Under the pieces are notes generated by a model. That model was not told the origin of the DNA. It saw only the letters and a list, made by a program, of their open reading frames with translations, and ran no database searches. Below, in pieces: positions 10,095 through 59,018 of a stretch of DNA of 64,000 bases; position 1 is the first letter of the stretch, and every line of letters begins with the position of its first letter. The position numbers were made by a program, and so were the translations under genes. Source of the DNA: Thermoplasmata archaeon (GTDB lineage: Archaea; Thermoplasmatota; Thermoplasmata; Lutacidiplasmatales; UBA184); contig DAHUXZ010000003.1 of assembly GCA_027315455.1 (NCBI GenBank), forward strand, positions 36,484-100,483, written 5' to 3'.

Positions 10095-10980
10095 CTCTCT
10101 TCCTGCCCCGCCGCGGGCGGGCGCGAGAGGCTCCGCCCGGCGCCGCGGGTCGGCGGAGCCCCTCGAGGACCTCGGGGAGCGCCGCGAGCGAGTAGTCGGC
10201 CCAGCGCGCCCCCCACTGGAGAAGGTCGGCGGGCGTCAGCGTCCAGCCCGGAAGGTTCGACGCGCGCGCGAGGGCGACCACCCCGGGGACCGACCCGGCC
10301 GCCTCCATGTCGAAGCGAGAATCGCCGATGAGGAAGACGGGCGCATCGGGGTAGCGCCGGCGGTACTCCGCGAGGTGCTCGCGCTTCGTCCCCTGTCCGG
10401 AGCCGAGGACGCCCTCGAACCAGAAGCGCAGCCCCTCCCGTTCGAGGACGAGATCCGCCATCTCGCGCTCGGCCCCGGTCGAGACGACCAGCGTCCATCC
10501 GTCGCCGCCGAGCCGCTTGAGCAGCCCGGGCACCTCGGGGAACGGGCGAGCCTGCGGGTAGGCCTCCCGAACCTTGCGCTCATGGAAGGCGCGGGCCACC
10601 CCCGACCGGGTGGTCGCCGAAACGTCGGGGTAGAGCTGGGTGAGCTGGGCCTCGAACGGCATCCCCGTGGTCGCGAGGTAGTGGATGCGGCCCTCCTCGG
10701 GGGGCGTGCCGAACGCCTCGAGAAGGATCGCCGCGGCGACCTCGCTGATGCGGCCGATGTCGTCCAGGATCGTGCCATCGAGGTCGAAAACGAGGACCCC
10801 GCGGGCGACGGAGCGCGGCGCCACGGGAGGCTCCGTCACCGGCGGTCGCGCGACCTCGGTGAACTGCGAGGTGGACGTGGGCAGCACCGGAAGCGGCGTC
10901 CCGACCGGCCCGCTGTCGGACGGTGGCGTGGGGGGGCTCGTCCGTCCGTTCCCACGACGGGGGCGCTGGCGGTCGGCCAC
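10009..10980 (-). CDS. HAD-superfamily hydrolase (phosphatase-like) with a Pro-rich N-terminal extension; its 3' tail runs antisense through the tRNA-His gene
   Basis: HAD motif I VLVFDLDGTILDD, motif II VSTGA, motif IV FLIGDSRFDMEAA. GTG start. The last ~45 codons are Arg/Gly/Pro-rich and overlap 10009-10094. Confidence 0.65.
   Translation of the reverse strand: MADRQRPRRGNGRTSPPTPPSDSGPVGTPLPVLPTSTSQFTEVARPPVTEPPVAPRSVARGVLVFDLDGTILDDIGRISEVAAAILLEAFGTPPEEGRIHYLATTGMPFEAQLTQLYPDVSATTRSGVARAFHERKVREAYPQARPFPEVPGLLKRLGGDGWTLVVSTGAEREMADLVLEREGLRFWFEGVLGSGQGTKREHLAEYRRRYPDAPVFLIGDSRFDMEAAGSVPGVVALARASNLPGWTLTPADLLQWGARWADYSLAALPEVLEGLRRPAAPGGASRARPRRGRKRGPGPRVSGGGGGPRRRLNPGRGIHSPPG
10049..10080 (+). 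other. Putative tRNA intron (32 nt) containing a 7-bp GC hairpin
   Basis: Removing 10049-10080 restores a canonical 7-nt T-loop TTCAAAT and the G53-C61 pair. Internal hairpin GGCGGGG (10053-10059) / CCCCGCC (10065-10071), loop ACCAC. Confidence 0.6.
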
Positions 10981-11076
10981 GCCCCGCCGAGCCGGTGGCC
11001 CTCATTAAGCCGATGGACCGCGCTCCGACGCGGGAACCTTTAGGTCCCGGGCCGTCTCGGAGGCAAAGGAGGCCCC

Positions 11077-12411
11077 ATGCACCCGAGCCGTGCGATACGC
11101 GGCCACCGCTCCGAGCTTCTCGCCGGGCGCCGGATCGTGCTCGGCATCTCGGGCTCGATCGCGGCGATCGAGACGCCGAGGGTCGCCCGCGAGCTGATCC
11201 GCCACGGAGCCGAGGTCATCGTCGTCATGAGCCGGGAGGCGACCCGCCTCGTCACGCCGGAGGCGATCGGATTCGCGACCGGCCGGCCGCCGATCGTCGA
11301 GCTGACGGGTGAGGTCGAGCATGTCTCGCTTCTCGGCCCGGGGGCCGGCCGCGCCGACCTTCTGCTCCTCGCCCCGGCGACCGCGAACACGATCTCCAAG
11401 ATCGCGCAGGGGATCGACGACACGCCGGTGACGAGCTTCGCCTCGGTCGCCCTGGGGGGCGGGGTCCCCGTGCTCGTCGCCCCCGCGATGCACGCCGACA
11501 TGGCCCGAAACCCGGCGGTCAAGGAGAACCTCGAGCGGCTTCGGTCGTGGGGGGTGGGGATCGTCGCCCCGACCGCCGCGGAGGGCGAGGAGAAGCTCGC
11601 CGGCCCGGAGGAGATCGCCGCCGCCGTCCTCCACCGGCTGGCCCGGGGTCCGCTCGCCGGCCGACCGGTCGTGGTCATCGGCGGGGCGGCCCGCGAGGCG
11701 ATCGACGCGGTCCGTTCGATCACCAACGAGAGCAGCGGGGCCACCGCCCTCGCGCTCGCCACCCTGGCCCACTACCGCGGCGCGGACGTCGAGCTCTGGG
11801 CGGGCGCCCTCGAGCTGCCGGTCCCGCCGTGGATCCCCGTCCGACGCTGGCGCAGCGTCGCCGACCTCCTCACCCTCGCGCGCCAGCGGCGCGGGGAGCT
11901 GGCCCGCGCGGCCGCCGTGATCGTCCCCGCCGCGCTGAGCGACTACACCCTGCCGCCCCGTTCGGGAAAGATCTCCTCGCGCGATGAGCCCCGCCTTACC
12001 CTCACTCTCGAGCGGACCCCGAAGGTCCTCGAGGAGATCCGACGGCGGGCCCCCGCGCCGACCCGGCTCGTGGGGTTCAAGCTTCTCGCCGGCGCCGGCT
12101 CGGTGACGCTCGAGACGGAGGCGCGCGCCCTCCTCGAGAGCTCCGGCGCGGATTGGATGATCGGCAACGACCGTGCGGTCATGGGGTCGCCGCAGACCCA
12201 GGTCCTGATCTTGACCCGCCGCGGGGACCGGCGCTGGCTGCGAGGTCCCAAGGAGGAGGTGGCCGGCAAGATCCTGGACGACCTCTCCCGGGAGCTGGCC
12301 GAGATCCCGGCGGCGGGCCCGCCCGACACGCCCGCGCGGGCGCGCTCGGGGTCCGGGCGCCCTCGGCGCCGCCGGCCCTCGCACCGCCGGCGCGCGCCCC
12401 GTTCCTCTTAA
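11077..12411 (+). CDS. coaBC: Bifunctional phosphopantothenoylcysteine decarboxylase / phosphopantothenate-cysteine ligase
   Basis: N-terminal flavoprotein domain (RIVLGISGSIAAIETPRVAREL...LLLAPATANTISKIAQGIDD) and C-terminal CoaB domain (ITNESSG...). A GGAGG sits 8 nt before the ATG. Confidence 0.9.
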   Translation: MHPSRAIRGHRSELLAGRRIVLGISGSIAAIETPRVARELIRHGAEVIVVMSREATRLVTPEAIGFATGRPPIVELTGEVEHVSLLGPGAGRADLLLLAPATANTISKIAQGIDDTPVTSFASVALGGGVPVLVAPAMHADMARNPAVKENLERLRSWGVGIVAPTAAEGEEKLAGPEEIAAAVLHRLARGPLAGRPVVVIGGAAREAIDAVRSITNESSGATALALATLAHYRGADVELWAGALELPVPPWIPVRRWRSVADLLTLARQRRGELARAAAVIVPAALSDYTLPPRSGKISSRDEPRLTLTLERTPKVLEEIRRRAPAPTRLVGFKLLAGAGSVTLETEARALLESSGADWMIGNDRAVMGSPQTQVLILTRRGDRRWLRGPKEEVAGKILDDLSRELAEIPAAGPPDTPARARSGSGRPRRRRPSHRRRAPRSS

Positions 12412-53687: not shown

Positions 53688-53852
53688 TCAGAACGACTCG
53701 GTGTAGCTGAGGAGGTAGAAGCTCCCCACGACCATCACGACCAGGAGGCCGAGGATCGCGAGCGGGTTCGCGGCGAACTGCCAGATCGTCACTCCGATGA
53801 GCCCCGCGGGAAGGGCCAGGGTGAGGAGGGCGGTAAGGGCGCGGCCGTCCAT
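53688..53852 (-). CDS. Tiny 2-TM membrane protein (54 aa; below the ORF-track cutoff)
   Basis: Translates to MDGRALTALLTLALPAGLIGVTIWQFAANPLAILGLLVVMVVGSFYLLSYTESF. Good GC3 bias. Lies 63 nt downstream of the FtsZ-like gene on the same strand. Confidence 0.4.
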   Translation of the reverse strand: MDGRALTALLTLALPAGLIGVTIWQFAANPLAILGLLVVMVVGSFYLLSYTESF

Positions 53853-53915
53853 CGGCCGGTGGGGAGGGCGCCCCCCTCTTAACGGTTCGTCCCGCCGAGC
53901 GTAGGGTCCGCTCCG

Positions 53916-54839
53916 CTAGCCCACCGGTGGGCCGGGGAACGGAAGCTCCACCTCGAACGTGACCTCCGCCTCTCCCGCCGGCCCCGGCCCGAAGCTCGGG
54001 GCGATCGGGGGGGCGCCCGGTCCGTCGATCGGGTCGAGGCGGGATGGCGCGGGCGCGGTCGGCCGGGCGATCACCTCGAGCTCGGCCGCGGGGGTCACCG
54101 GTCGACCGGTGCCGAGAGAGGTCTCCGCGGGGGCGATGAACGCGCGCTCGATGTGGCCCGCGATCTCGCTTCCCCAGTGGGCGTTGAGGCGGTTGAACGG
54201 GATCGAGGGTCGCTGGTGGACGAGGGTCTCGTTGTCGAGGACGGTCAGCGTGGCGACCCCGCGCTGGCGCTTCTCGACGAACGACTCGACGAAGTGGAGG
54301 CGTCCCAGGGCCCGCTCGGCGACGGCCCGCCGCTCCCCCTCGCACGCGAACGGCTTGAGTACGAAGACGCTCAGTACCTCCGCGCCGCGCGCCGCGGCGT
54401 CCAGGACCGTCGGGAGCGCCCCGGTGCCGCTGCCGCCTCCGAGGCTGCCGATGATCGTGACGAACGTCGCGCCGTCGAAGATTCGCTCGAGGGCCGGGGC
54501 CGCCGCCTGGGCGAGGCTCGCTCCGAACGGCACGCTGCCGCCGGTGTCGGCCGTCCGCCCGCTCTCGGGGCCGAGGTAGATACGCCGGTCGAACTCCTCC
54601 ACGTCCTGGACGTGCGGGTCGCAGTTGATCGCTACGGTCTCGAGGTAGCGCAGGTGGTGGCGGGCAATCTCCCGCCCGACGCGCACCGCGCCGCCCCCGA
54701 CGCAGACCAGGAGGAACCTCAGGTCATGGCCGAGACGGAGGTTCTCGTAGAACCCGTCCTCGTAGATCTCGTCCCCCCGACTGCTCGGAGGTCGGTCGAA
54801 CTCTGGTCCCCTCGGCTCGCTCTCGTACGTGGCCACCAC
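53916..54839 (-). CDS. FtsZ/tubulin-superfamily GTPase-domain protein lacking the T7 loop and C-terminal domain; Pro-rich tail
   Basis: LLVCVGGGAVRVGREI (G1), AINCD, the tubulin signature IIGSLGGGSGTGALP, VLKPFACEGERR, TLTVLDNETL. After the helix H7 equivalent there is no NxDxxD, only a Pro/Ala-rich sequence. Confidence 0.8.
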   Translation of the reverse strand: MVATYESEPRGPEFDRPPSSRGDEIYEDGFYENLRLGHDLRFLLVCVGGGAVRVGREIARHHLRYLETVAINCDPHVQDVEEFDRRIYLGPESGRTADTGGSVPFGASLAQAAAPALERIFDGATFVTIIGSLGGGSGTGALPTVLDAAARGAEVLSVFVLKPFACEGERRAVAERALGRLHFVESFVEKRQRGVATLTVLDNETLVHQRPSIPFNRLNAHWGSEIAGHIERAFIAPAETSLGTGRPVTPAAELEVIARPTAPAPSRLDPIDGPGAPPIAPSFGPGPAGEAEVTFEVELPFPGPPVG

Positions 54840-54873
54840 CCGCTTCCCCCGTCGCTCGACGTGCCCCCGGCCG

Positions 54874-55377
54874 CTAGCGGCCGACGACCCCCTGCCGTTC
54901 CAGGTCCCGTCCGCTCGCCTCGAGACCCCGCAGCCGCGCGCGCTGGGCCGTGGCCTCGTGGACCGAGGCGCGCGACCGCGCGACGAGCTCGGAGACCTTC
55001 AGCTCTAGCTCCCCGCGCCGGAGCACCTCGGCGAGGACGTCCGCGAGCGCGCGGCCGTTCCCGACGAGATCGGCGTAGGTCGCATAGGCTTCGGCCTCCT
55101 CCGGCCGCAGCCGGATGGGCACCTCGACGAACCCGGGCGGGAGCGCCGCCGCGGGGGTCGGGACGGCCGACAGGGCCCGCGCCCGGAGGAACTCGTGGAG
55201 CGCTGCCCGCATCAGCTCGGACCGGCTCCGGAACTCGCCGTTGGCAACGAACGAGTCCAGGAGCCCGAGCTCCTTGCGGTTGCACCGCAGCGCGATCCGC
55301 TCATCCTCGGGACCGATCCGACGGTCGGGCGCTGCACCGTAGCGCTCGTCCTTGGACCGGGGCACTTTGTCGAACAC
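54874..55377 (-). CDS. Ribbon-helix-helix (CopG/Arc/MetJ-like) DNA-binding protein with a helical C-terminal extension
   Basis: ERIALRCNRKELGLLDSFVANGEFRSRSELMRAALHEFL fits the beta-alpha-alpha RHH pattern. GTG start. Lies 34 nt upstream of the FtsZ-like gene. Confidence 0.65.
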   Translation of the reverse strand: MFDKVPRSKDERYGAAPDRRIGPEDERIALRCNRKELGLLDSFVANGEFRSRSELMRAALHEFLRARALSAVPTPAAALPPGFVEVPIRLRPEEAEAYATYADLVGNGRALADVLAEVLRRGELELKVSELVARSRASVHEATAQRARLRGLEASGRDLERQGVVGR

Positions 55378-55401: not shown

Positions 55402-55413
55402 CTATTACTTAAA
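55402..55413 (-). promoter_or_regulatory. AT-rich TATA-like element (TTTAAGTAATAG on the minus strand) about 25 nt upstream of the RHH GTG
   Basis: Lowest-GC patch in the window (GCTATGCAAAATCCTATTACTTAAACTGATG). Confidence 0.35.
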
Positions 55414-55644
55414 CTGATGCACGGGCTTGCGCCGAAGGAACGAAACCGGTCCCCGGCTCACACTTTCTTGACGTGTCGAACAAATCCGCTAGGGGTCGAA
55501 CCGGTGCGTCGTCGTGGGAAGTCGGGCGTATAACTGGCCCGGAACGGTCTCCGGAGCGACCGCACCCCTCGTGCGCATCTATGCGTGCCACGGTCCGGGC
55601 CGTGCGTCGGCCGGCCGATCCCCGCGTCGTCCCGCGAGAACGTC

Positions 55645-55739: not shown

Positions 55740-57890
55740 TTGCACGGCCGCCGCCGCCGGTCGAACTCCCGCGCCGTCTCCGACGTCGTCGCGACGATCC
55801 TGCTGCTCGCGCTGACCGTCACGCTGTTCTCGTCCATCTTCTTCTTCGTCAACACCTTCCCGCGCCCGCAACCGTCCCCGGCGAACCAGTTCTCCGCCAA
55901 GCTCGCCTATGGTTCCGGCGGGACCACGATCACCGGGGTGAGCGTCCTTCACCTCTCCGGCCCCACGGTCGCCGGCAACGCCCTCGTCTACCTCTACTCG
56001 GCCCGGCATCCCAACGCGTTCCCCACTCCGTTCAGCGTCTCGCAGGGGATCGGCGGCGGGTCCGTGTGGAACCTCGGCCAGTCCTGGGTCCTCAACGTCA
56101 CGTCCTACGGCCTCGCGGCCCCGGACAACATCACCATCTCCATCGTCACCAACTCCCTGCTCCTGTTCCGCGTCACGCTCCCCGGGACCAACCCGAACAT
56201 CCCGCCGACGTTCGTGAACGTGGGCGTGCTGCCGGCGACTCCCGGCGTGGGCCAGCCGTTCACGGTCTACGCGGAGATCCTCGACGACGACCTCAACACC
56301 CACTCGGTCTTCGTGAACCTCTCCCAGATCCCCGGGGTCACCGGCACCGGGCGGTTCTCGATGACCTACTCCGCGGCGAACGGCACGTGGAGCTACTACG
56401 TCCGGGCCGGGACGACGACGGGGGCCGGCCGGTTCTTCGCGTTCATCAACGCGACCGACCAGGCGCTGCAGCCGAACTCGATCGCGTTCACGATCCCGAT
56501 CGCCGCGGTCGCGAGCCCGCTCTCGGTCTCGCTCTCCGCCAATCCCGCCGCGCCGATCAACAACTCGGCCGTATCGCTGATCACCTACGTCCAGAACCTC
56601 GCGGCCGGCTCCGCCACGGTGACGGTCCAGTACGTCGTCTCGGGCACCCCGATCGGCAACACGAGCGGCGTGGTGGGTGGGGGCTCGACGGCCGCCTTCA
56701 CCAGGTCCTGGACCCCGACGGCACCGGGCGTCTACCTGATCTCGGTGTTCGCCAACACGAGCGGTACGGGGGCGACCGGCGCCTCGCTCAACCTCACCGT
56801 CTTCCCGTCGATCCTCCTCCTTTCCCACAACGTACCGTCCGGAACGCGGACGGCGTTCAACGGCAGCAGCTTCCTCGCCCAGGAGCTGACGGCCGCGGGG
56901 TTCCCGTTCTCGACGATGTTCGTCTCGTGCACCAGCGCGATCCCGACCTCCATCCGTTCGTACAACGTCGTCATCATCGACTTCGGCAGCAACTGGGGCT
57001 ACTCGAGCTGTCCCAAGGCGCCGAGCACCACGGACCAGGGGACGATCACCGGTAGCACCTCGACGAAGTTCCTCGTCACCGGCTCGAACGCCTTCGGGCT
57101 CACCTCCTGCAGCTCGTACTCGTCGTCCTTCTTCGCCGAGTTCGGCATCACCTGGCAGAGCGGCAGCACCTGCGTGACGGTCCCGAACGCCACGGCCTCC
57201 GCGACCTGGTCGGCCGCGACGGGGGTGGGCCTGCGCTCCGACGGGATCCCCTCCTCGATGACGATCAACGCGACCCTCGCCGGTTCGAACCACCACATTC
57301 CCTACACCTACTTCGCCCTCGGGACGACGAACACGGCGTTCCTCAAGGGAGGGACCCACCCGGTCGGCGCCTATGCCGCGAAGGGTTCGTTCGTCACGGG
57401 GATCGCCCTCGCGACGAGCACGCCGCTGCTCACGACCCCGCTGCCGAGCGGCAACAGCTGGGGGACCGGCACCGCGGGCACGGCCGTCATCTACAACGCC
57501 CTCAATGCCCTCTGCGGGCTCTCGACGAGCACCCAGACCGGCCGCGCCCTGACCGACTTCGCGGTGGCGCAGTCCACCCTCGTCGGGCAGTCGCACAGCC
57601 TCGTCTCGACGGTGTACGTCGGGCTGCGGGCGAACGGCCCGGTCGGCGCACCGGTGACCGCGCTCCTCTACGTCAACGGGACGCCGGCGACGTACAACGG
57701 CGCCTCGGTGAGCGCGACGGCCGAGGTCGGCGCGGGCGGCCAGGTGGCGTTCGTGACCCTCTACTGGCAGGCGCCGGGGGGCGGCGCCTACTCCCTGTCC
57801 GTCGTGATCGTGGTCTCGGGGAGCGACTACTTCAGCCCCAACAACCAGATCGCGATGTCGATCCTCAACCAGCCGACGACCTTCACCTAG
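55740..57890 (+). CDS. Large (~716 aa) extracellular protein with an archaeal type IV pilin-like N-terminus (class III signal peptide, Pilin_N type)
   Basis: (TTG)HGRRRRSNSRAVSDVVATILLLALTVTLFSSIFFFV at the N-terminus, then a Thr/Ser/Gly/Asn-rich beta-type sequence with many N-x-S/T sequons. The start is uncertain (TTG at 55740 preferred; ATG at 55581 or 55473 are possible). Confidence 0.7.
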   Translation: MHGRRRRSNSRAVSDVVATILLLALTVTLFSSIFFFVNTFPRPQPSPANQFSAKLAYGSGGTTITGVSVLHLSGPTVAGNALVYLYSARHPNAFPTPFSVSQGIGGGSVWNLGQSWVLNVTSYGLAAPDNITISIVTNSLLLFRVTLPGTNPNIPPTFVNVGVLPATPGVGQPFTVYAEILDDDLNTHSVFVNLSQIPGVTGTGRFSMTYSAANGTWSYYVRAGTTTGAGRFFAFINATDQALQPNSIAFTIPIAAVASPLSVSLSANPAAPINNSAVSLITYVQNLAAGSATVTVQYVVSGTPIGNTSGVVGGGSTAAFTRSWTPTAPGVYLISVFANTSGTGATGASLNLTVFPSILLLSHNVPSGTRTAFNGSSFLAQELTAAGFPFSTMFVSCTSAIPTSIRSYNVVIIDFGSNWGYSSCPKAPSTTDQGTITGSTSTKFLVTGSNAFGLTSCSSYSSSFFAEFGITWQSGSTCVTVPNATASATWSAATGVGLRSDGIPSSMTINATLAGSNHHIPYTYFALGTTNTAFLKGGTHPVGAYAAKGSFVTGIALATSTPLLTTPLPSGNSWGTGTAGTAVIYNALNALCGLSTSTQTGRALTDFAVAQSTLVGQSHSLVSTVYVGLRANGPVGAPVTALLYVNGTPATYNGASVSATAEVGAGGQVAFVTLYWQAPGGGAYSLSVVIVVSGSDYFSPNNQIAMSILNQPTTFT

Positions 57891-57917: not shown

Positions 57918-58991
57918 TCAGCTCGTGGGCGGGCTGCCGCCCGACGGCAGGGCCGTTCCCGACGACGGGGTCGGCGCCGGAAGGGCGGCGCCGCACTTCC
58001 AGCAACTGGCCTCGCTGGCGTAGACGACGGCCTGGCAGTTGGGGCACGCGCGCTCGTTCGGCCCCGACGGTCCGGTCCGCCCTTCGAGGGAAGGGGCCTC
58101 GGGGGACGGGGCGCCGGCCGGCGGCGGGGTCATGCCGCCGCTGCGGCGCGCCTGGCGGCGCTTGAGGTAGACGTAGACGACGAGCCCGAGGAAGAAGACG
58201 ATCCCCGGGTAGATCATCATGTCGAGGTACACCGGGATGAGGATGATCGAGAGGGTGCTCGCGAAGTCGCCGCTGATGGGGCCCTGCACCCCCGAGTATC
58301 CGCTCGACGCGGCGAGGAAGATCCAGACGATCGAGCCGTTGGCGGCCCCCACGTACGCCGTCGCCATCTGCCACCACCAGACGTTCGGGGCCGGGAGGTG
58401 GACATTGAACGACTTCACCGTGGGCTGGCTGAGGTTCGTGAGCGTCTGGTTGAACGAGTAGAACGGGTAGCCGGCCTGGCAGTACGGCGAGCTATTCCCG
58501 GTCGCCCCGGGACAGGTGCTGACGAACAGGTCGAGCCAGAGCAGGCCGCTCGTATTCGTGGGTAGGTACTGCGGATTGACCGTCACCGAGAAGTTGAACG
58601 GCCCGTTGCCGTCGCTCGCGAACGGGGAGACCTGGGCACCCTCGAGGATCGGTCCCCCCTTCCCGTAGGGGAGGGTCGATGCGGAATCCGCGGCGGCCGA
58701 GGGGACCCGGACGACGGTGGCGACGTACAGGACGGACGTGAGCGGCCCCGCGATGAGGAGGGCCGTGAGGCCGAGGACGGCGAGGAGGCGGGGGCGCTTC
58801 CAGCCGGCGTAGATCGGTACCGCGAGCCCGAACAGGAGGAAGGCGACGATGGCGAGGAACGGGCCGAGGTAGAGGAAGCTCCCGGTCAGGGTGAGGATCG
58901 CGATGGCGACGAGGACGACAAGACCGGCCCGGGTCGCGAAGAATCGCCGGAATCCGGCGAAAAGGCTCTTATCGCCCGCCGACTGACTCAC
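57918..58991 (-). CDS. Polytopic membrane protein with a large extracellular loop and C-terminal zinc ribbon (CPNC...CWKC)
   Basis: TM helices flank a loop carrying N-x-S/T sequons and paired Cys (STCPG...YCQ). Cytoplasmic tail ...ERACPNCQAVVYASEASCWKCGA. GTG at 58991 lies 27 nt downstream of a TATA element. Confidence 0.6.
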   Translation of the reverse strand: MSQSAGDKSLFAGFRRFFATRAGLVVLVAIAILTLTGSFLYLGPFLAIVAFLLFGLAVPIYAGWKRPRLLAVLGLTALLIAGPLTSVLYVATVVRVPSAAADSASTLPYGKGGPILEGAQVSPFASDGNGPFNFSVTVNPQYLPTNTSGLLWLDLFVSTCPGATGNSSPYCQAGYPFYSFNQTLTNLSQPTVKSFNVHLPAPNVWWWQMATAYVGAANGSIVWIFLAASSGYSGVQGPISGDFASTLSIILIPVYLDMMIYPGIVFFLGLVVYVYLKRRQARRSGGMTPPPAGAPSPEAPSLEGRTGPSGPNERACPNCQAVVYASEASCWKCGAALPAPTPSSGTALPSGGSPPTS

Positions 58992-59018
58992 GGCGGAGAG
59001 AGGCGAGCAGGCCACCCC

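Follow-up and report, generated by a model that had tools for sequence, protein, structure and literature searches.

The three minus-strand genes at positions 53688-55377 of a 64,000-nucleotide stretch (the window) of contig DAHUXZ010000003.1, from a Thermoplasmata metagenome-assembled genome (MAG) of the Lutacidiplasmatales/UBA184 lineage, encode a ribbon-helix-helix (RHH) protein (gene 1), an FtsZ-related protein of 307 residues (gene 2) and a small membrane protein (gene 3). Gene 2 is a real member of the FtsZ superfamily, distinct from both the canonical division FtsZ and CetZ. It keeps the N-terminal, nucleotide-binding half of FtsZ and is referred to here as half-FtsZ. With roughly even confidence, the locus is interpreted as a reduced derivative of the archaeal cdrS-ftsZ2 division locus that has become fixed in the Lutacidiplasmatales chromosome. 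The open reading frames (ORFs) reported in an initial annotation made from the sequence are all present at those coordinates, with gaps of 34 nucleotides between genes 1 and 2 and 63 nucleotides between genes 2 and 3.

Gene 2 (53916..54839, minus strand) matches the Pfam Tubulin/FtsZ GTPase family PF00091 at 40.8 bits against a cut-off of 33, over residues 46-179. Its translation carries each nucleotide-binding motif quoted in the initial annotation, namely GGGAVRVG, AINCD, GGGSGTG, PFACEGERR and LDNETL. The FtsZ equivalog model TIGR00065 scores 64.6 bits, below its cut-off of 295.2, and aligns only through model positions 20-161 of 353. The C-terminal domain family PF12327 (FtsZ_C) is not matched by gene 2, and the precomputed Pfam assignments of its homologues list PF00091 alone. 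Sequence matches in the PDB at E<0.01 number 49; all are FtsZ and cover residues ~37-180 only, and no entry named TubZ, PhuZ or CetZ is found among them. Solved CetZ structures are present in the PDB library.

The folded part of the protein, residues 35-243 (54111..54737, minus strand), comprises the FtsZ N-terminal GTPase domain (S1-S6, loops T1-T6) and helix H7 (215-243), as indicated by AlphaFold2 (AF2), Foldseek and the family alignment. The AF2 model, calculated with 30 homologues, has a predicted local distance difference test (pLDDT) score above 90 for approximately residues 41-243 and is disordered beyond residue 244. When the model is compared with the PDB by Foldseek, ~200 columns corresponding to the FtsZ N-domain plus H7 are aligned (TMq 0.54; E 7.5e-13). 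The best structures are those of S. aureus, M. tuberculosis and other FtsZ, all 50 among the matches listed being FtsZ, and the gene 2 chain departs from the FtsZ fold at the start of the would-be T7 loop. With TIGR00065 below its cut-off and all listed PDB and Foldseek matches being FtsZ, the earlier exclusion of a canonical division FtsZ and of a CetZ is upheld.

In an alignment of 30 family members, the invariant positions are G48-G50, N72/C73/D74, G101/S102, G134-G136/G138/G140, K162/P163/F164/E167 and L201/D202/N203. The loops in contact with the nucleotide are invariant or nearly so, namely GGGA (48-51), NCD, GGSP, GGGxGxG (GGGSGTG, 134-140), KPFxxE and LDN. Helix H5 has additional invariant arginines, R171, R176 and R180. 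The T7 synergy loop (NxDxxD) is absent after H7 in all the aligned members, and beyond H7 the only invariant residues are P237 (the proline of the H7/T7 junction), E239 and three positions of a C-terminal peptide, E292, T294 and E296. The C-terminal domain was also sought at the DNA level by tblastn with 10 canonical FtsZ C-domains. No match was obtained in the window or in ~90 related loci, whichever the frame, though L011 and L012, the control loci, were detected in the same search (E 1e-17 to 1e-99). Alignment, AF2, Foldseek and tblastn thus agree on the loss of both the T7 loop and the C-domain, as had been proposed; helix H8 is missing as well.

What follows the folded part was first described as only a Pro-rich tail. 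The linker, ~residues 244-289 (53973..54110, minus strand), is indeed Pro-rich and disordered (pLDDT <50), it varies in length and sequence within the alignment, and no coiled coil occurs in the protein. The tail ends, however, in a conserved peptide, EAEVTFEV (53949..53972, minus strand), for which the family consensus is (E/D)(A/V)E(L/V)TFE(V/I); besides its three invariant residues, F295 is nearly invariant in the 30 sequences. An automatic choice of patterns placed this peptide among the two most conserved peptide patterns of gene 2. Canonical FtsZ docks on its membrane anchors with a layout of this kind, in which a disordered linker joins the globular domain to a short conserved peptide at the end of the chain, and the C-terminal peptide of gene 2 is taken here to be a partner-docking peptide. 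In archaeal FtsZ, the C-terminal peptide is centred on a GID motif and binds SepF (PMC8178401). The terminal peptide of gene 2 differs from this SepF-binding peptide, so that the tethering layout is retained in the family but its partner is probably new.

The gene 2 family forms more than 120 clusters with a length of ~300-310 residues and occurs in at least 116 GTDB species at 50-90% identity, all of them Thermoplasmata MAGs. A scan of genome collections assigned members to Candidatus (Ca.) Lutacidiplasma silvani, 'Ca. Lutacidiplasmatales archaeon', UBA184 and UBA61. When 1.84 billion representatives were searched with a profile, 21 sequences lay below E 1e-30, after which the score falls from 142 to ~105 bits into generic FtsZs, and on this measure the family is sharply delimited. 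The G+C content at third codon positions (GC3) is 0.91-0.92 for genes 1 and 2 (0.92 for gene 2), and codon-position GC is gene-like. Gene order, proposed as a check on the initial annotation, proved to be conserved: at 80 species-level loci, the RHH gene is present at 79, the small membrane ORF at 77 and both at 76.

Gene 1 (54874..55377, minus strand) encodes a 167-residue protein whose assignment to the RHH class relies on Pfam, alignment and the AF2 model. It passes the Pfam model RHH_1 (PF01402) with 27.6 bits against a cut-off of 20.5 (E 2.6e-6, residues 27-64). AF2 predicts the RHH helices followed by a helix at residues 111-161, in agreement with the long helical tail noticed at the outset. 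A variable N-terminal tail leads into the RHH domain (27-66); the long helix (111-161) comes later, and the sequence DLERKGVVGR is conserved at the C-terminus. Homologues (n=274) are ~167 residues long and share 57-90% identity. The best NCBIfam match of gene 1 is CdrS, NF058555, a haloarchaeal model of 61 positions with a cut-off of 100 bits, to which gene 1 scores 21.7 bits, and hhalign relates gene 1 to the CdrS-like RHH protein of L011 at E 1.1e-4. A second RHH repeat is detected in gene 1 neither by Pfam nor by NCBIfam; hhalign gives it weak support (E 0.033) in the correct register, so that a degenerate second beta-alpha-alpha unit is possible at ~residues 83-125. A fold search with the RHH monomer model gave nothing significant, the best matches being fragments of RHH ParD and MatP at E>2, and a monomer of an obligate dimer fold is uninformative in this respect.

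An RHH gene upstream of ftsZ is an already known archaeal arrangement, cdrS-ftsZ2, which was overlooked in the initial annotation. Synteny of cdrS and ftsZ2 has been reported across archaea, CdrS being a transcription factor needed for division (PMC7439475), and Pende et al. described 'ftsZ2 frequently with parD' (PMC8178401). Among the higher-scoring canonical FtsZs of the profile search, the FtsZ2-type P0330 (Tubulin + FtsZ_C) has upstream a 104-residue tandem RHH gene, and two stretches of its product match the CdrS model (E 3e-16). Further short FtsZs without T7, of 236-303 residues, surfaced in the same search. A search seeded with seven short FtsZs showed such proteins, all matching PF00091 only and annotated 'hypothetical' or 'FtsZ', to be common among Methanomassiliicoccales, Ca. 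Natronoplasma and other 'Thermoplasmatota' MAGs. An example is WP_400207237.1, of 246 residues, from Ca. Methanomassiliicoccus intestinalis. At every short-FtsZ locus that could be read (L009, L094, L095 and L096/L097), the upstream gene encodes an RHH protein with an added helical tail, as it does throughout the five short-FtsZ lineages examined. It is the pair of RHH and short FtsZ alone, not the set of three genes, that recurs outside Lutacidiplasmatales.

Since this pair recurs and the canonical P0330 has a CdrS-like RHH gene upstream, the locus of the window is read as a reduced cdrS-ftsZ2, and gene 2 is likely to be orthologous to FtsZ2. In a crude neighbour-joining tree, made without a labelled reference set of FtsZ1, FtsZ2 or CetZ, 7 of the 10 other short forms cluster with the 'LDNN' clade of canonical archaeal FtsZs, to which P0330 belongs, and the window family lies on a long unresolved branch beside the three remaining short forms. 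The literature library that was searched contained no published account of an N-domain-only FtsZ in Thermoplasmatota, Lutacidiplasmatales or Methanomassiliicoccales.

The cdrS-ftsZ2 locus of Halobacteria and other Euryarchaeota resembles that of the window in that a small RHH gene immediately precedes an FtsZ-family gene read in the same direction, and in being chromosomal and vertically inherited. It differs in that the half-FtsZ has neither T7 loop nor C-terminal subdomain and ends in an ELTFEV-like peptide rather than a GID peptide. The RHH protein also differs: it has 167 residues as compared to ~60, carries a long helix, a conserved tail and possibly an additional unit, and falls far below the CdrS equivalog cut-off. 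No CdrL occurs here, whereas Lutacidiplasmatales add a small membrane gene. The short FtsZs of Methanomassiliicoccales, Ca. Natronoplasma and other Thermoplasmatota share the architecture of the half-FtsZ, having 245-297 residues and consisting of the N-domain and H7 only, with PF00091, no FtsZ_C, an acidic or Pro-rich tail, and a helical-tailed RHH protein encoded directly upstream. Conversely, they share only ~30-35% identity with the window protein and form a separate cluster in the ranking of the profile search; they have an H6-H7 loop of canonical length and a GGGTGTG signature, and they have no ELTFEV peptide and no downstream gene for a protein with two transmembrane helices.

The wider population of short T7-less FtsZs corresponds to P0271-P0331 and P0393-P0509, with L149 as an example of 70.7% GC. 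Other unusual FtsZ proteins were encountered as well. P0265 (826 residues) contains two complete FtsZ units head-to-tail in one polypeptide, and P0306 (556 residues) is a full FtsZ (Tubulin + FtsZ_C) with a 230-residue N-terminal extension. The first 50 residues of P0306 are RHH-like by eye, but they have no Pfam RHH match, and an RHH-FtsZ fusion was rejected.

The region upstream of gene 1 was compared among 65 related loci. Box 1 (55368..55376, minus strand), TGTTCGACA, lies over the GTG start of gene 1 (GTG TTC GAC AA) and is an exact 9-mer repeat of box 2 (55474..55482, minus strand), which is TGTTCGACA inside the conserved TTGTTCGACACGTCA, ~105 nucleotides upstream of the start. A forward GTTCGAC near -105, always in the same orientation, is found at 64 of the 65 loci. 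Box 3 (55495..55501, minus strand) is a distal GTTCGAC located 20 nucleotides upstream of box 2, or 21 nucleotides in most relatives; an exact second GTTCGAC at the 21-nucleotide spacing is present at 29 of the 65 loci and is at least 50% conserved in the consensus. A TATA-like box, TTTAAGTA, is situated at -36 to -29 of gene 1 (55406..55413, minus strand), and TTTAA(A/G)TA occurs at -36 or -35 in 58 of the 65 loci. This position implies a near-leaderless operon transcript. A Shine-Dalgarno-like GGGGGAAG is present in the 34-nucleotide gap ahead of gene 2.

The start of gene 1 reads GTG TTC GAC AA at all 65 loci and is never ATG (in the window, 55366-55377: GTG TTC GAC AAG). The fourth codon is AAC, AAA or AAG (N/K), and the 'AA' is always retained; its retention while the residue varies points to a constraint at the DNA level. 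The invariant 'MFD' N-terminus thus looks like a third TGTTCGACA box covering the start codon and the probable site of transcription initiation. The three conserved boxes of the same orientation are likely operators. Their arrangement fits autoregulation by the RHH protein, and an operator reading would be at least as good as a centromere reading. A fourth GTTCGAC is located at window position 55760, just inside the start of the divergent neighbour.

Gene 3 (53688..53852, minus strand) encodes 54 residues that include two hydrophobic helices; MDxR is conserved at the N-terminus and Y-x-x-SF at the C-terminus. Its ORF is intact at 77 of the 80 related loci, with 54-64 residues and an ATG start in 70, and aligned sequences share 63-67% identity; no family match was found for it in Pfam or NCBIfam. 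In Ca. Methanomassiliicoccus intestinalis, the gene downstream of the short FtsZ encodes an NAD kinase, not gene 3, and gene 3 is specific to Lutacidiplasmatales. A TATA-like element, TTAAGAG (53876..53882, minus strand), lies ~30 nucleotides upstream of the gene 3 ATG, and a consensus 'tt.a.a.gggg' is found at ~-31 to -24 over 77 loci. This element may be a promoter of gene 3 itself, giving a separate leaderless mRNA. The earlier description of the locus as a three-gene cassette goes too far: what recurs in other orders is the pair of RHH and short FtsZ, whereas gene 3 is confined to one lineage and has its own TATA-like box. Because the whole neighbourhood is syntenic within the order, the adjacency of genes 2 and 3 is weak functional evidence, and a functional link between them is possible.

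In a near-identical strain, the protein P0242 is a 383-residue in-frame fusion of the half-FtsZ, a 21-residue spacer and the 54-residue membrane protein, which arises where the TAG stop of gene 2 reads GAG. Genes 2 and 3 of the window are likewise in frame (53853-53918; the 63-nucleotide gap contains no further stop). Over 78 loci, the length of the gap modulo 3 is evenly spread (26/27/25), and this uniform phase rules out programmed stop-codon read-through joining the two genes. P0242 may be a single event or an assembly error.

An FtsZ subunit has its active site completed by the T7 loop of the subunit above it, and this is the basis of filament dynamics; FtsZ and tubulin are accordingly understood as two-domain proteins. 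In the mechanism proposed for the reduced cdrS-ftsZ2 locus, the RHH protein would act as a CdrS-type transcription factor binding the three same-orientation TGTTCGACA boxes, one of them over its own start, and this binding would result in autoregulation of the near-leaderless bicistronic RHH-FtsZ transcript. The half-FtsZ would bind GTP without being able to insert a T7 loop into a neighbour, and so would form no normal GTP-hydrolysing homopolymer. In the simplest mechanism, with a top (nucleotide) face and no bottom face, it would be a built-in bottom-blocked subunit, which could bind under a canonical FtsZ subunit, or under the end of a filament, and halt growth, like the FtsZ-MciZ complex. 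The linker and C-terminal peptide would then tie the capped filament end to a partner, which in Lutacidiplasmatales could be the adjacent 54-residue membrane protein or the helical tail of the RHH protein.

It has been reported that FtsZ subunits add at the bottom of the filament and that a bottom-blocked subunit caps growth (bioRxiv 10.1101/2020.02.25.965095). FtsZ-MciZ and bottom-face mutants have a usable top face and no usable bottom face, and the geometry of the half-FtsZ is the same by construction. The likeness is an analogy of mechanism only, and the half-FtsZ differs from these cappers in its altered H6-H7 loop on the top face. We infer that the half-FtsZ is a GTP-binding subunit unable to activate hydrolysis in a neighbour, serving as a filament-end cap or an adaptor.

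Several observations weigh against the reduced cdrS-ftsZ2 locus and the capping role. Gene 1 is far under the CdrS equivalog cut-off and nearly three times the length of CdrS, and the placement of the gene 2 family in FtsZ2 depends on context and a crude tree. The gene 2 peptide, (E/D)AELTFEV-like, is unlike the archaeal GID peptide. The H6-H7 loop of gene 2 (residues 203-215, ~54195-54233) has 4-5 residues fewer than its canonical FtsZ counterpart and varies within the family; as it contributes to the top longitudinal face, this argues against a conserved canonical filament contact. The position of the guanine-contacting Asp of H7 varies in the family (N, S, D or A). A canonical FtsZ on which the half-FtsZ could act was found by tblastn neither in the window nor in related loci. 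A scan of metagenomes for DNA patterns yielded two non-halophilic soil contigs of ~70.5% GC with ftsZ1-secE-spt5, L188 (375-2551, minus strand) and L216 (1511-1987, plus strand), whose taxon could not be established, the tetranucleotide comparison having failed to separate positive controls from bacterial contigs. They are possibly Lutacidiplasmatales contigs. The Spt5 encoded on these two contigs has an unusual Ala/Pro-rich N-terminal extension of ~190 residues.

The supplements of Pende 2021 and Sheridan 2022 hold no Lutacidiplasmatales entries or list no division genes. For Ca. Methanomassiliicoccus intestinalis, the supplementary table of Pende et al. gives three FtsZ hits and SepF, which implies that the short form there accompanies the standard machinery. 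Some Thermoplasmatota are known to lack FtsZ, SepF or both (PMC11188069; Pende supplementary table).

Other shortened or divergent members of the superfamily have been described. The truncated FtsZ paralogues of Hyphomicrobiales, Agrobacterium FtsZ1 and FtsZ3, are likewise conserved, shortened and kept beside the division machinery, and they have been proposed as division tuners; overexpression of Agrobacterium FtsZ1 inhibits division (bioRxiv 10.1101/2025.09.29.679267). Their truncation is nevertheless the opposite one. They keep the whole GTPase core and have lost the linker and C-terminal peptide, whereas the half-FtsZ has lost half of the globular core and retains the linker and terminal peptide. 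In addition, they are bacterial and have no RHH partner. FtsZl1 and FtsZl2 are divergent members of the FtsZ superfamily, and in FtsZl1, too, neither a T6-H7/T7 region nor a C-domain can be recognised. FtsZl1 is, however, a protein of ~1000 residues with a coiled coil and an alpha-helical C-domain, encoded in operons with vWA and OmpA genes, and FtsZl2 has T7 plus a C-terminal region of ~300 residues (PMC2875224). The suggestion that gene 2 could belong to such poorly characterised 'FtsZ-like' families is ruled out by architecture and context, the protein having 307 residues, no coiled coil and a disordered tail.

It is conceivable, if unlikely, that the half-FtsZ acts on its own as a GTP switch. 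An RHH protein bound to TGTTCGACA sites of the chromosome would recruit it by way of the long helical tail or of the FtsZ C-terminal peptide, and it would engage the 54-residue membrane protein, which would give a nucleotide-gated nucleoid-membrane tether or a device resembling nucleoid occlusion, without a canonical FtsZ filament. Consistent with such a role, loss of the C-domain correlates with the RHH helical tail (122-167 residues beside short FtsZs as compared to 104 beside P0330), conserved terminal peptides are present on both the RHH protein and the half-FtsZ, and the H6-H7 loop of the top face is variable. The P0242 fusion, if real, would mean that covalent membrane tethering is tolerated. 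The bacterial regulator SlmA acts via the FtsZ C-terminal tail. Being a DNA-bound regulator that acts on FtsZ, it offers a precedent (PMC4117426). Nonetheless, there are only three boxes, all at the promoter of the operon itself, which is the look of a plain autoregulator, and other orders with the pair of RHH and short FtsZ lack the membrane gene. The in-frame phase of genes 2 and 3 is unconserved, as seen above, and P0242 is a possible assembly error.

A further proposal is rated as quite improbable. In it, the half-FtsZ would be the sole FtsZ-family protein of Lutacidiplasmatales and, with the RHH protein and the protein with two transmembrane helices, would provide a non-polymerising, GTP-gated coupling of chromosome and membrane for division or segregation. 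If true, this would be a tubulin-fold GTPase acting as a switch and not as a filament.

The initial annotation had recognised in the locus the logic of a type III partition system of the TubR/TubZ kind, in which an RHH adaptor on centromere-like repeats would be moved by a tubulin-fold GTPase. The likeness consists of a gene for a DNA-binding protein adjoining, and upstream of, that of a tubulin-superfamily GTPase with a conserved C-terminal tail, and of short direct repeats beside the operon. TubZ binds TubR through its own C-terminal tail. TubR is a winged-helix protein, not an RHH protein, and TubZ has both domains and polymerises; the domain that it needs to do so is missing from the half-FtsZ. 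The locus is part of a conserved housekeeping block of the chromosome (PAC2, FEN1, FTCD, primase) in at least 76 species, and tblastn detected no relative in 72,556 plasmids, 50,697 phage records or IMG/VR. Sequence and fold matches are to FtsZ, neither TubZ nor PhuZ appearing among the PDB matches at E<0.01, and the RHH-FtsZ pairing is accounted for by the known cdrS-ftsZ2 arrangement. A partition system is on these grounds very improbable. The idea that gene 2 is a decaying or split ftsZ (a pseudogene, a frameshift or an assembly artefact), which draws on its truncation relative to FtsZ and on broken gene calls hereabouts in some long-read assemblies (L008), has a negligible chance of being correct and is ruled out by a length that stays at ~300-310 residues (in more than 120 clusters and in 116 species, with 50-90% identity), the invariant GTP-binding motifs, the conserved C-terminal peptide, the GC3 of 0.92 and a C-domain found in no frame, so that the claim of an intact gene survives the frameshift check.

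The window as a whole has a G+C content of ~73%. Lutacidiplasmatales is an acidic-soil order with genomes of ~69% GC and 2.1 Mb (PMC9287336). Ordinary archaeal chromosomal genes are present, such as those of topoisomerase VI A/B, succinyl-CoA synthetase and coenzyme A biosynthesis, together with a Nuo-type complex I operon; other annotated genes encode FEN1, a PAC2 proteasome chaperone, FTCD, DNA primase, RIO kinase and PEP synthase. The neighbourhood is syntenic across the order, with PAC2, FEN1, FTCD and RibD_C also downstream. An Rfam scan of the window, including the 362-nucleotide spacer, found no known RNA.

The gene at 55740-57890 (plus strand), divergent to the RHH gene, encodes in several species a Pilin_N protein (archaeal class III signal peptide), which is found elsewhere at L004 2036-2662 and at L007/L008 8908-9534; the 362-nucleotide control region with the boxes is common to both genes. 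At 57918-59015 (minus strand), a 365-residue multi-pass membrane protein is encoded, whose cytoplasmic C-terminus carries a zinc-ribbon-like CPNC...CWKC motif. Haloarchaeal division involves zinc-ribbon membrane-associated proteins (CdpC), and CdrL is a double zinc ribbon. In L008 (ENA contig_19268 = OY970259.1, a 2.18-Mb long-read chromosome), at ~10732-11457 and in neighbouring genes, the half-FtsZ, FEN1, RibD_C and FAA hydrolase are called split or shortened, probably from uncorrected indel errors.

The order Lutacidiplasmatales, and apparently several neighbouring orders, have long kept only the nucleotide-binding half of FtsZ, with the GTP loops strictly conserved. Nature has in effect tested here which functions are open to an FtsZ N-domain by itself, be it as a cap, an adaptor or a switch. 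The family also gives a tangible point of entry to the study of division in Thermoplasmatota, whose machinery is patchy. Hundreds of database entries labelled 'hypothetical protein' or 'cell division protein FtsZ' are in fact neither.

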